DNA from: an uncultured Thermus sp.
GTDB taxonomy: Bacteria; Deinococcota; Deinococci; Deinococcales; Thermaceae
Direction: 5' to 3'
Length of the DNA stretch: 64,000 bases
Assembly: GCA_947085095.1 (NCBI GenBank)
Contig: CAMTVD010000006.1
Coordinates: forward strand, 1 to 64,000
Shown here: piece after piece, positions 308 through 62,025 of the stretch
Layout: every line of letters begins with the position of its first letter
Numbering within the stretch: position 1 is the stretch's first letter
Translations under genes and position numbers: made by a program
Notes under the pieces: model-generated
Databases searched by the model: none
What the model was told of the DNA's origin: nothing
The model's input: the letters and a program-made list of their open reading frames with translations, nothing else

Positions 308-1879
308 TTAAATCTTAAGACCGAGTACGGCCAAGACCTCGCGCAAGGCTTTGTCGGCCTCGGCCCGCTCCTCCTCGGCTTCCCTAAGGAGAACCACCGC
401 CTCCTCCAGGGGCAGCACCTCTTCCCCGTCGTTGCTCGCCACGTAGCGGCTTGGGGAGAGGTTGTAGTCGTTTTGGGCCGCCACTTCGTTGGTGATGATG
501 GCGGAAAGCCCCTCCTCCGCCCGCCATTCGTGGTAAAGCTGGGCGATGGTCTCAATGTGCTCCTGGGCTAGGTAGTTCTTGGGCCGGCCCTTGGCGAAGA
601 GCTTGCTGGCGTTAACGAGGAGGATTTCCCCGGGGCGGCGCTTCTTGCGGTTCACCACCAGGATGATGCCCGGGGCGGTGGTGTTGTAGAAGAGGTTTTC
701 CGGCAAGAGGACCACGGCCTCAATGAGGTCCCGCTCCACGAAGGCCTTGCGGATGTCCCGCTCACGGTTTGCGCCCTGGTTGCCGCTGCCCCGGCTCACG
801 GCCCCCGTGTCCAGCACCACGGCCATGCGCCCCGTTTCCTTGAGCGAGGCCAGCATGTGCTGGAGCCAACCCCAGTCGGCGCTGGAGGCGGGGGGAACGC
901 CGAAGGCGAAGCGCTCGTAGGGGTCGTTCTCGTAGAGTTCCGTGGGGAACTCCTGGTTCCACATGGGGTTAGCCACCACCAGGTCAAAGGCCTGAAGCCG
1001 CCCGGCGTAGTCTTTGAAGGCGGGCTGGCGCATGGTGTCGCCGATGCGGATGTCGGCCTCGAGGTCGTGGATCACCGCGTTCATGCGGGCCATGGCGAAG
1101 GTGGTGGGGTTGATCTCCTGGCCGAAAAGGCGTAGGGGGGCGACCTCAGGCGGTAGGCGGCGATGGCCGTTCTCCTCCACGCCGTGGGTTTCCAAAAGGC
1201 GCAGGTGGCACTTGATGAGGAGACCGCCCGAGCCACAGGCCGGGTCGTAGACCGCCATGCCGGGCGCGGGCTCCAGAAGGCGGGCCATGAGCACGGCCAC
1301 CTCCCGAGGGGTGTAAAACTCACCCGCGCTCTGGCCCTGCCCCTCGGCAAACTTGCGCAAAAGGTACTCGTAGGCACGGCCCAGGATGTCGGGCTCCACG
1401 TCGTAAAGGCCCAGGCGTTTGCTGGAGAGGACGTTCACCAGGCGGGCCAGGTACTCGTCGGGCACGATGCGCTGCCCCGCGGCGGTGGCGTTGAAGTCCA
1501 CGAGGTCAATCACGCCCGCAAGCCGGGGATTCTCCCGGGCCACGGCCCGCACCGCGTCGGTGAGATACTGGCCCAGCCCGGCCTGGCCGTGGGTGCGGAT
1601 TTGCTCCCAGCGGGCGAGGTCTGGGATGTAAAAGCGCACCGAGCCCCGACCCGCGGCAATGGTGCCCGCCTCGCGCTCCCCTTCCACGATGGCGCGGGCC
1701 ACCTCGAGGCTCCCATACTCCCCAGCAAGCCGGGCCATCTCGTCGTCAAACACGTCGGAGAGGCGCTTGAGGAAGACCAGGGGCAGGATGTAGTCCTTGA
1801 ACTTGGGTGCGTCTACGGGGCCACGGATGGTGCAGGCCGCGTCCCAGAGCCAGGCCTCGAGGGTGTCTATGCCAAGCAC
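308..1879 (-). CDS. hsdM: Type I R-M methyltransferase subunit M
   Basis: LWDAACTIRG N-terminal domain, GEFYTP, YDPACGSGG (motif I), VVANPMW (motif IV), YNLSPSRY. Confidence 0.95.
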   Translation of the reverse strand: MLGIDTLEAWLWDAACTIRGPVDAPKFKDYILPLVFLKRLSDVFDDEMARLAGEYGSLEVARAIVEGEREAGTIAAGRGSVRFYIPDLARWEQIRTHGQAGLGQYLTDAVRAVARENPRLAGVIDLVDFNATAAGQRIVPDEYLARLVNVLSSKRLGLYDVEPDILGRAYEYLLRKFAEGQGQSAGEFYTPREVAVLMARLLEPAPGMAVYDPACGSGGLLIKCHLRLLETHGVEENGHRRLPPEVAPLRLFGQEINPTTFAMARMNAVIHDLEADIRIGDTMRQPAFKDYAGRLQAFDLVVANPMWNQEFPTELYENDPYERFAFGVPPASSADWGWLQHMLASLKETGRMAVVLDTGAVSRGSGNQGANRERDIRKAFVERDLIEAVVLLPENLFYNTTAPGIILVVNRKKRRPGEILLVNASKLFAKGRPKNYLAQEHIETIAQLYHEWRAEEGLSAIITNEVAAQNDYNLSPSRYVASNDGEEVLPLEEAVVLLREAEEERAEADKALREVLAVLGLKI

Positions 1880-1883
1880 GGAC

Positions 1884-60641: not shown

Positions 60642-62025
60642 GCCACAGGAGGAGTGCGGCGTCCTGGGCCTTTGGGCGGAAACCCCTCTGGACGTGGCGG
60701 GGTTGCTCCACCTGGGCCTCCTCGCCCTCCAGCACCGGGGGCAGGAGGCCGCAGGGATGGCGGTCTCCGACGGGCAGGAGTTCCTGGCGGAGAAGGACCT
60801 GGGCCTGGTGAACCAGGTCTTCACCGAGGAGCGCCTTCTCCGGCTCCGCCTCCCCGGGGGCCGAATGGGCATCGCCCACACCCGCTACTCCACCACGGGC
60901 TCCAACCTCCGCTTCAACGCCCAGCCCCTCACCGCCAGGACCGCCCACGGGGTCCTGGCCATCGCCCACAACGGGAACTTCGTGAACGCCAAGCCCCTCC
61001 GCGACCGCCTCCTGAAGGAGGGGGCCACCTTCCAAAGCACCACGGACACCGAGGTCATGCTCCTCCTCCTGGCCCGCCTGGCCCACCTCCCCCTGCCCCA
61101 GGCGGCGACGGAGGCCATGAGGGCCCTCGAGGGGGGGTATTCCATCCTCCTCATGGACCGGAAAACCCTCCTCGCCCTCCGCGACCCCCACGGGGTGCGC
61201 CCCCTGGTCATCGGCAAGGCCCCCTGGGGCTACGCCTTCGCCTCCGAGGCCCCGGCCTTGGAGCTTTTGGGGGCCACCTACCTGCGGGACGTCCGCCCCG
61301 GGGAGGTGGTCTGGGTGGAGGAGGGGGAGCTAAGAAGCCTCCAGGTCCTCCCCCCAAGCCCCACCCCCTGCGCCTTTGAGTGGATCTACTTCGCCCGGCC
61401 GGATAGCCTCCTGGACGGGGTGGAGGCCTACCAGGCCCGGGTCCGCATGGGGGAGGAGCTCTTCCGGGAGGCCCCGGCGGAGGCGGACATCGTGGTCCCG
61501 GTGCCTGACTCCGGCATGGGGGCCGCCGTGGGCTACGCCCGGGCAAGTGGCCTCCCCCTGGAGTACGGGCTCTACAAGAACCCCTACGCCGGGCGCACCT
61601 TCATCCAGCCCACCCAGGAGCTCAGGGACCTGAAGACCCGCCTCAAGCTCGCCCCCACCTCGGCCGTCAAGGGCAGGCGGGTGGTCCTCATTGACGACTC
61701 CATCGTGCGGGGCACCACCAGCAAGCGCATCGTGGGGATGCTGAAGGAGGCGGGGGCCAAGGAGGTCCACTTCCGCGTTTCTAGTCCCCCCATCCGCTTC
61801 CCCTGCTACTACGGCATAGACACCGCCGCCAGAAAGGAGCTCATCGCCGCGGAAAAGAGCGTGGAGGAGATAAGGGCCTATATCGGGGCCGACTCCCTGG
61901 CCTTCCTCTCCGAGGAGGGGGTGCGGCGGGCCATCGGGGGGCCGGTGTGCCTGGCCTGCTTCAACGGCCGCTACCCCGCCGGGGTGCCTGAGGCAGGGGA
62001 GAAGCTCGCCCTGGAACTGGGCTAG
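60634..62025 (+). CDS. purF: Amidophosphoribosyltransferase
   Basis: EECG, LQHRGQE, HTRYST, DDSIVRGTT, PCYYGID. Confidence 0.98.
   Translation: MDKPQEECGVLGLWAETPLDVAGLLHLGLLALQHRGQEAAGMAVSDGQEFLAEKDLGLVNQVFTEERLLRLRLPGGRMGIAHTRYSTTGSNLRFNAQPLTARTAHGVLAIAHNGNFVNAKPLRDRLLKEGATFQSTTDTEVMLLLLARLAHLPLPQAATEAMRALEGGYSILLMDRKTLLALRDPHGVRPLVIGKAPWGYAFASEAPALELLGATYLRDVRPGEVVWVEEGELRSLQVLPPSPTPCAFEWIYFARPDSLLDGVEAYQARVRMGEELFREAPAEADIVVPVPDSGMGAAVGYARASGLPLEYGLYKNPYAGRTFIQPTQELRDLKTRLKLAPTSAVKGRRVVLIDDSIVRGTTSKRIVGMLKEAGAKEVHFRVSSPPIRFPCYYGIDTAARKELIAAEKSVEEIRAYIGADSLAFLSEEGVRRAIGGPVCLACFNGRYPAGVPEAGEKLALELG

Follow-up and report, generated by a model that had tools for sequence, protein, structure and literature searches.

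This study found that the octamer CCTCGAGG is a Thermus counterpart of the unexplained HIP1 repeat of cyanobacteria. The window, a stretch of 64,000 nucleotides (G000:C6:1-64000), belongs to a source genome, G000, that is 93% complete in 41 contigs, the largest of 276 kb; judging from named protein homologs, G000 and its near relatives form the genus Thermus. In this genus the octamer is retained and other copies of its core, TCGA, are purged; both effects are genus-wide and real, and they are separable, a point missed by the initial annotation of the window. The explanation that we rank first, at a probability a little short of even, is that the octamer is a methylated HIP-like mark with a benefit in DNA transfer or recombination.

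An exact count of the window gave 57 octamers and six other TCGA sites, which together make up all 63. The initial annotation had counted about 57 and about six at these positions, against two to three octamers expected from base composition, and the calculated expectation is indeed ~2.5 per 64 kb. As it had also said, most copies encode Leu-Glu (xxC-CTC-GAG-G, 54/57) and those at 20056, 48244 and 54802 lie in an x-Ser-Arg frame (xCC-TCG-AGG, 3/57). The features are listed below, with the starts of the six non-octamer TCGA given in octamer register.

1057..61132, no strand: 57 dispersed CCTCGAGG copies, all within called genes and 54 in the Leu-Glu frame, starting at 1057, 1702, 1855, 2570, 2699, 4669, 5602, 5902, 6535, 7650, 7716, 8667, 11919, 12737, 14069, 14272, 16049, 16235, 19137, 19937, 20056, 21864, 23955, 25221, 26944, 27241, 28551, 29315, 31058, 33638, 36085, 36975, 37347, 37458, 38620, 39142, 40673, 40958, 41257, 43279, 44685, 45439, 46255, 46379, 47660, 48244, 51004, 51471, 51636, 54272, 54802, 54950, 57047, 58071, 59198, 60218 and 61125
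20056..20063, plus strand: octamer in the x-Ser-Arg frame (Thr-Ser-Arg), gene 19851-20246
48244..48251, minus strand: octamer in the x-Ser-Arg frame (Pro-Ser-Arg), toward the 3' end of gene 48232-48984
54802..54809, plus strand: octamer in the x-Ser-Arg frame (Ala-Ser-Arg), gene 54162-55493
10502..10509, no strand: TCGA outside the octamer, single outer base off, GCTCGAGG
18195..18202, no strand: TCGA outside the octamer, single outer base off, CCTCGAGC
23565..23572, no strand: TCGA outside the octamer, single outer base off, CCTCGAGC
54140..54147, no strand: TCGA outside the octamer, single outer base off, GCTCGAGG, not in any called gene
44721..44728, no strand: TCGA outside the octamer, Ile-Glu, GATCGAGC
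54383..54390, no strand: TCGA outside the octamer, Ile-Glu, GATCGAGG

The octamer at 20056 is missing from the orthologs of its gene in G015 and G003. Across the genome, in which our own gene caller found 2092 genes (92.5% coding), the octamer holds 1576 of the 1932 TCGA, with copies on 40/41 contigs and a density of 759 per Mb, or ~1 per 1.3 kb; 1497 of the 1576 are in the Leu-Glu frame, and 30 of the non-octamer TCGA sit in tRNAs. Base composition predicts 81 copies of this word (75% GC), a 19-fold excess. A second-order Markov model, the kind of null that the initial annotation had proposed, predicts 170 (observed/expected, O/E, 9.3), and the octamer is the top-ranked 8-mer by z-score. Near-misses counted on both strands were far more often off at an outer base (143) than at an inner one (23). 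Octamer density is 0.45 per kb in genes of low third-position GC content, compared with 0.77-0.85 otherwise. Long pieces of window positions 28001-48000 match contigs from two other runs within this study, which are not independent, with 0-1 differences; the pattern is therefore not an assembly artefact. Runs of reads with a low share (X5-X20) were kept out of the evidence. On contig C41 (8.6 kb, 55% GC), 0/36 TCGA are in the octamer; this contig (G000:C41:1-8621) carries type I restriction-like genes and is either a recent acquisition or a contaminant. Other short words also deviate: in G000 and eight samples of the genus and group g3, CGATCG, the HIP1 core, is depleted (O/E 0.08-0.37), and CGCG and CTAG are depleted to 0.3-0.76.

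The size of the enrichment claimed for the octamer stood only in part, the excess being real but mostly a matter of Leu-Glu codon use, which accounts for most of the 19-fold figure and which the initial annotation had missed. When synonymous codons were shuffled within 1908 of the 2092 called genes (50 shuffles), 1512 octamers were observed against 892 (1.7x), and the synonym CCTGGAGG was likewise 1.6x over its shuffle. By frame, the observed and shuffled numbers were 5 and 0.4, 38 and 6.7, and 1469 and 885, so that the two non-Leu-Glu frames, with 43 copies, show excesses of 12.5x and 5.7x. Total TCGA was 1761 against 8946 (0.20), a ~5x depletion in each of the three frames. The real anomaly is a contrast between flanks: CTC GAG is chosen in 1469/3570 (41%) of the Leu-Glu pairs flanked C..G, and in 0-6% for the 15 remaining combinations of flanks.

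A preference for codons or codon pairs at the level of translation, with no force on the DNA, would be the simplest account, given that 1497/1576 copies are Leu-Glu and that codon choice depends strongly on the next codon. A maximum-entropy null that preserves the proteins and all codon-pair counts (5 samples) recovers the number of TCGA sites (about 1755 for the observed 1761) and that of CTCGAG, but it yields about 712 octamers against the observed 1512, half of the copies, and overshoots the near-misses 6-50x (CCTCGAGA, 158 vs 3 observed; GCTCGAGG, 188 vs 31 observed). A codon-pair explanation is thus refuted at the pair level, and the outcome by which the initial annotation would have fallen, a codon-pair shuffle reproducing the counts, did not occur. 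The effect also covers four codons symmetrically about the palindrome, TCGA is depleted in all three frames, and the spacing described below acts across gene boundaries, which leaves translation alone hardly credible as the cause.

The avoidance of TCGA through rare codons, which the initial annotation had suspected, is plain in the codon counts. TTC is used before Asp/Glu in 21/1647 cases (1.1-1.4%) and before Ala/Gly/Val in 67-84%; ATC is used before Asp/Glu in 69/1594 (4-5%) and before Ala/Gly/Val in 86-95%. The proteins are affected as well: Phe-Glu O/E is 0.39-0.48 in 6/6 purged genomes and 0.79-1.21 in 7 unpurged samples, and Ile-Glu O/E is 0.50-0.70 and 0.72-1.39, respectively. The TCGA purge thus forces rare codons and fewer Phe-Glu and Ile-Glu dipeptides. 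Synonymous choice in G000 also depends on the next codon beyond TCGA, as GTC is used before Ala/Gly/Val in 1-2% and CTC in 7-14%, with TTC and ATC unaffected.

To place these patterns, 81 genomes were compared, with codes (g3, f1-f5) as group names and TCGA levels in relatives gauged by DTCGAGG and DCTCGAGG words and by sampled regions. The octamer share of TCGAGG words is 0.73-0.95 in 32/32 genus genomes and 0.76 and 0.65 in two g3 genomes; in the 47 genomes outside the genus and g3 it does not exceed 0.59 (median 0.13). Non-octamer TCGA is purged 20-60x in all 32 genus genomes examined. As the link to TaqI-like methylases proposed by the initial annotation had led one to expect, strong M.TaqI orthologs occur in each of the 32, and further in both g3 genomes and G055, and in none other of the 81. 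The endonuclease R.TaqI was found in 9/81 genomes, all nine within the genus; the median DTCGAGG count is 28 per Mb in these nine and 115 in the 23 genus genomes without it, the kin among them not being independent. Octamer density does not clearly differ between the two sets (834 vs 747 per Mb, p 0.11). A similar bias appears in 16.8 kb of 11 T. thermophilus plasmids, polarised on the majority allele, where synonymous gains of other TCGA number 3 against 9.9 expected; since controls ran at 0.6-1.0 of expectation, the net deficit is ~2x. In G063, by contrast, there is no purge and no M.TaqI ortholog was found, yet the C..G flank preference is 146/181 (22-65% for other flanks), with a coefficient of variation (CV) of the gaps at z -2.9. 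Because this genome shows the preference without the purge, the two are separable forces.

The retained octamers repel one another. In the spacing test, octamer use was permuted 300 times over eligible X-Leu-Glu-Y sites, with genes under 300 bp, C41 and contigs under 25 kb excluded. Gaps under 100 bp make up 1.8% of the total (8.5% permuted), gaps under 300 bp 11% (23% permuted, z -12) and gaps over 3 kb 7.5% (11% permuted), with a CV of 0.85 vs 1.09. An eligible site is used in 19/251 cases when another octamer lies within 50 bp and in 416/776 when it lies at 0.8-1.6 kb. Pair density relative to expectation is 0.1-0.3 below 100 bp, about 0.6 up to 500 bp and 0.86-1.0 beyond, and the repulsion holds between different genes too. 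The synonym control CCTGGAGG is clustered, unlike the octamer. The deficit of gaps under 300 bp recurs in 6/7 other genus genomes sampled (G018, G011, G015, G003, G025 and G005, but not significantly in 60 kb of G028, z -1.1), and a deficit of short gaps is also seen in G033. Variants that match at 7 of 8 positions also shun octamers (median distance 566 bp vs 383 bp at random, n=119), but other TCGA do not (367-409 bp, n=95).

Positions are conserved as well, as the initial annotation had suggested checking. At amino-acid-identical sites the octamer is retained in 220/319 cases and CCTGGAGG in 129/274, and in 3/4 genome pairs it is conserved above control (p 2e-4, 1e-6 and 0.013; 0.86 for G015). 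Where a copy is unshared, the partner genome has its own octamer within 300 bp in 51/92, 35/77, 23/73 and 5/40 cases; around shared copies the numbers are 10/45, 12/55, 9/68 and 9/97. Nearby replacement of unshared copies is thus commoner in 3/4 pairs. Together with the methylase distribution, the spacing, conservation and replacement data favour the description of the octamer as HIP1-like and probably methylation-linked.

These observations would fit a scheme in which a TaqI-type restriction-modification system, encoded at one conserved site of the genus, makes any new or under-methylated TCGA a liability, which would be removed despite the rare codons and lost Phe-Glu and Ile-Glu dipeptides that this entails; where the endonuclease is lost, the purge would relax slowly. 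Retention would depend on adenine methylation of CCTCGAGG by the conserved M.TaqI-family enzyme and on a putative host factor that reads it. The benefit of an octamer would be local and would saturate where another copy is no more than about 0.5 kb away, and just the non-redundant copies would repay their cost, giving a density of ~1 per 1.3 kb and copies that repel one another and, when lost, are replaced close by. From a TCGA cost and a saturating octamer benefit, purge, exemption, spacing and turnover would all follow. The benefit would most likely lie in DNA transfer or homologous recombination, with the octamer as a methylated mark of self DNA like that reported for HIP1, through selection or drive on DNA segments; the octamer may derive from an older preference of the order for CTCGAG, narrowed in Thermus. 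Two reports on other systems are compatible with a role in transfer: methylated HIP1 raises transformation >100-fold (10.1101/2024.09.10.611283), and the 1.1-1.5 kb spacing of neisserial DNA uptake sequences matches conversion tracts (PMC2397512). The protein-binding or transfer signal considered by the initial annotation is therefore compatible with the data and is the version that we prefer, although no reader was found and uptake is reported to be nonspecific.

Several results weigh against this scheme. DNA uptake by T. thermophilus is reported to be sequence-nonspecific (PMC3583032), so that a transfer role must act after uptake. No octamer reader was found among the candidates searched; an EVE protein occurs in 80/81 genomes including f3, an apparently Deinococcus-like group, and is uninformative as a reader, and a DpnI search gave a signal in no control and was uninformative. 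The surplus over the synonymous shuffle is just 1.7x. G000 lacks a match to R.TaqI yet is among the most purged genomes (46 DTCGAGG), and G055 has an M.TaqI ortholog with no purge. The G000 enzyme departs from M.TaqI in two loops, and a search for a methylome of G000 or of any Thermus orphan allele found none, with table S3 of PMC4752239 listing no Thermus. A 50 kb stretch from one plasmid (n=23) shows no repulsion, and neither does CTCGAG in G042, G072 and G055. In the G015 pair, conservation of the octamer (39/72) is not higher than that of the control (36/64), and nearby replacement is not significant against G018. Octamer-breaking synonymous minor alleles in the 11 T. thermophilus plasmids number 8 against 4.6 expected, which indicates that single octamers are weakly held. 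Intergenic octamers number ~35-36 against about 5 and are not rRNA by Rfam; this excess was set aside, as many such copies look like missed genes.

The octamer could instead have no function and simply escape the purge, being cut slowly by R.TaqI or protected first by the methylase. Its modest 1.7x surplus, shared with CCTGGAGG, the graded flanks of the near-misses (outer-off 143 vs inner-off 23), the polymorphism of octamer copies within T. thermophilus and the dependence of purge strength on the endonuclease would all agree with exemption alone. Such an exemption fails to predict a repulsion limited to octamers and their 7-of-8 variants, or the replacement of lost copies nearby; the octamer excess in two other frames (38 vs 6.7 and 5 vs 0.4) and the flank preference of G063 in the lack of a purge also speak against it. 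A literature search found no data on flank preference, and the accessible parts of PMC4187101, PMC5959919 and PMC7767461 hold nothing on DNA contacts or flank preference. Protection by a second conserved methylase is ruled out, because G025 and G005, in which it was not found, retain the octamer pattern. Exemption as the whole explanation is thus distinctly unlikely.

This second methylase, an ortholog of the putative methylase of PDB 2zie, lies at L009:1456-2930 (G000:C18:77501-78975) beside a 223-aa partner with no Pfam match. It is present in 23/32 genus genomes and its partner in 22/32, and the pair also occurs in g3 and G057. No avoided word separates genomes with it from those lacking it.

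A repair-driven ratchet was another proposal of the initial annotation. In an Elhai-type model, hemimethylated CCTCG(m6A)GG (m6A, N6-methyladenine) would steer mismatch repair, so that a change that brings a sequence closer to the octamer would become fixed wherever no existing copy is in reach of the repair. The model (PMC4390886) predicts ~1 site per kb, saturation and near-misses at the outer positions, all of which were seen. It also predicts lower divergence near copies, but synonymous divergence is flat with distance to the nearest octamer in 4/4 genome pairs (O/E 0.96-1.11 over 7 bins), like that around a control motif. In addition, MutH, Vsr and a cytosine-C5 (C5) methylase were not found in the 93% complete G000, and the purge of other TCGA is left unexplained. 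We regard the ratchet as very unlikely.

Phages allow the host pattern to be viewed in other replicons, counted over 41-50 kb of each large genome. In the small phages IN93, P23-77 and phiKo, 7/8 TCGA lie within the octamer, as in the host; in the large phages with their own replication genes, the octamer holds 0/29 TCGA in P23-45, 0/30 in phiLo and 3/213 in phiFa. P23-45 and phiLo avoid TCGA (29 and 30 vs 102-166 expected), and their 0/59 octamers compare with about 3 expected if there were no avoidance, a weak point against exemption alone. Since few octamers are expected there (0.4-1.8), the phage pattern speaks just weakly for a signal tied to a host process rather than a blind spot of the enzyme. 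It would also suit an octamer that binds a chromosome-organising or replication-coupled protein at ~1 site per kb, a role suggested for HIP1 by its periodicity, with the purge unchanged. Repulsion, compensation and partial conservation would be expected of any saturating cis function, uptake is reported as nonspecific (PMC3583032), and nucleoid roles have been proposed for HIP1 (PMC5861425). Against such a site stand the small phage counts, the lack of a candidate protein, and the distribution of the copies, which form no cluster at dnaA, never exceed 4 per kb and show no helical phasing of pair distances at the 8 periods tried. A chromosome-organising site, which we rank second, is unlikely.

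Three further phage observations were made. phiFa (L086) does not avoid TCGA (213 sites, with about 180 expected), though the related oshimavirus P23-45 avoids it five-fold. phiLo (L084:20013-21155) carries an M.TaqI homolog with canonical loops, and no other phage in the 50,697 records has one. In 41 kb sampled of phiLo, at least 14 six-base palindromes are absent; the scarcity of CTCGAG in this phage (1 in 178.5 kb) was rejected as a specific signal, since many 6-bp palindromes are missing too.

The methylase that the preferred reading, a methylated mark, would require is encoded outside the window, as follows.

G000:C14:250700-251869, minus strand: M.TaqI-ortholog methylase gene with Eco57I and TaqI_C domains, NPPY intact

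Its product matches M.TaqI (PDB 2ibs) at E 4e-163 across residues 2-386, and it belongs to the N6-adenine methylase family of the TaqI system. No adjacent R.TaqI was found in G000 (PF09573 gave no match and tblastn nothing below E 0.27; the genome is 93% complete and the locus contiguous). The usual gene order is methylase, optional endonuclease, small open reading frame (ORF) and a gene that we take to be gyrB, with a presumably kbl-like gene upstream of the methylase. In G000, a converging four-gene cluster (G000:C14:239682-250721) stands where other genomes have the small ORF and gyrB after the methylase; one of its proteins, of 921 aa, bears the methylase motifs DPPY and FxGxG, and the cluster is likely a defence island. 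The M.TaqI orthologs (L014-L043, L075-L077) split into canonical alleles, with or without the endonuclease, and an orphan clade. In a tree of 32 rows (G031, with no NPPYG frame, and G009 and G029, with no locus, were left out), this clade comprises 19 rows including G000 (100/100 support), all without the endonuclease. In it, GIVGEASKYPIH is replaced by GALGAGARLx (GAPGAG in two rows) and TKGT by TRHY or TRHG (TKGT is retained in one row). The two altered loops contact DNA in M.TaqI, and the clade is a candidate for a natural change of specificity. PaeR7I-like methylases are sporadic, with E below 1e-50 in 8/81 genomes and none in G000.

Outside the genus, no palindromic hexamer ranks above CTCGAG in samples of f1, f2, f4 and f5. 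Over a codon shuffle CTCGAG is enriched 3.1-4.8x in G042, G040 and G072 and 1.35-1.75x in six others, and reduced to 0.2x in f3. For Marinithermus hydrothermalis, Meiothermus ruber and M. chliarophilus, tables S3/S4 of PMC4752239 list orphan CTCG(m6A)G methylases as active, with no cognate endonuclease; they give no such methylase for M. silvanus and list no Thermus. G072 (f5; L052, L053, L137-L142) carries CTCGAG at ~4.8 per kb in all frames, with a Leu-Glu dipeptide O/E of 2.31 and no spacing, and no TaqI_C or PaeR7I-like methylase was found in its genome. G057 and G075 have few CTCGAG words within families rich in it, and the second methylase is present in both.

As a tentative model, clearly below an even chance in our estimate, M.TaqI would be a core epigenetic writer of Thermus that marks an evenly spaced octamer for a putative reader, for example one favouring recombination with self-DNA; the orphan clade with re-tuned loops would do likewise, possibly narrowed to CTCGAG or CCTCGAGG, and the optional endonuclease would purge other TCGA. 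Three decades on, HIP1 still lacks an established function, and in the organisms that carry it the writer is difficult to separate from the reader. Thermus offers a highly transformable model genus with a HIP-like word, solved structures of the writer, natural alleles with and without the endonuclease, and octamer sites that can be silently recoded (CTC GAG to CTG GAG). Its built-in TCGA cost exposes the range (about 0.5 kb) and the saturation of the benefit, which are less plain in HIP1 genomes. The TCGA content of donor DNA is also relevant to Thermus engineering, and a restriction site appears to have reshaped, across an entire genus, which codons and dipeptides are used.

Among known systems, the TaqI/TthHB8I restriction-modification system (TCGA; PMC5587805; PDB 2ibs, 1g38) shares with the Thermus pattern an M.TaqI-family methylase and a site avoidance that is stronger with the endonuclease. 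In the genus, the methylase is core (32/32) and the endonuclease patchy (9/32), 19 of the 32 aligned rows belong to the orphan clade, whose loops are altered, and the 20-60x avoidance leaves one sharply exempt, spaced context. The DNA uptake sequences of Neisseria and Pasteurellaceae (PMC2397512) resemble the octamer in occurring ~1 per 1-1.5 kb (here 1 per 1.3 kb), in being missing from a recently acquired contig (0 on C41) and in belonging to a naturally competent genus; the octamer differs in being palindromic, methylase-tied and nearly all coding, in a genus with reportedly nonspecific uptake in T. thermophilus (PMC3583032, where the octamer string is part of a primer). Orphan methylases such as Dam (GATC), CcrM (GANTC) and the Nocardia CTCGAG enzyme (PMC4752239) are likewise conserved by lineage and mostly without an endonuclease, and relatives of Thermus methylate CTCG(m6A)G; unlike the sites of these enzymes, the octamer forms no dnaA cluster and its sites repel each other. 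The methyl-directed repair ratchet finds no match here, given the flat synonymous divergence and no MutH found.

The closest likeness is to HIP1 (GCGATCGC; PMC4390886, PMC5861425, PMC13756078, 10.1101/2024.09.10.611283). Both are dispersed, GC-rich, mostly genic palindromic octamers (~760 per Mb in Thermus) built round a methylase site, a predicted one in Thermus, with near-misses at outer bases, conservation above control and an orphan methylase. PMC4390886 and PMC13756078 mention neither Thermus nor Deinococcus, and a literature search, with subscription journals and REBASE methylomes mostly out of reach, found no paper on the octamer in Thermus. The two differ in phylum and word: HIP1 has a C5-methylated hexamer core (CGATCG) and the Thermus octamer a putative 4-bp m6A site, whose near-total purge, unlike in HIP1, underlies the pattern; HIP1 shows a 10-90 kb periodicity, and the octamer a measured short-range repulsion. 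The octamer is not HIP1 proper: the word is another one, CGATCG stands at O/E 0.24 in G000 and no C5 methylase was found there. As in the HIP class, the octamer is a palindrome of at least 75% GC, lies within 500-2500 per Mb (759), is the top over-represented 8-mer and is conserved above control motifs in 3/4 genome pairs; its enrichment (9.3x second order, 19x base composition, 1.7x shuffle) does not reach the 15- to 300-fold of HIP words (PMC5861425). With four tested HIP features found wholly or in part, and the HIP1-specific ones and the enrichment range not found, the octamer works like a HIP. If the proposed model is true, HIP systems arose independently in two phyla, the one in Thermus on m6A.

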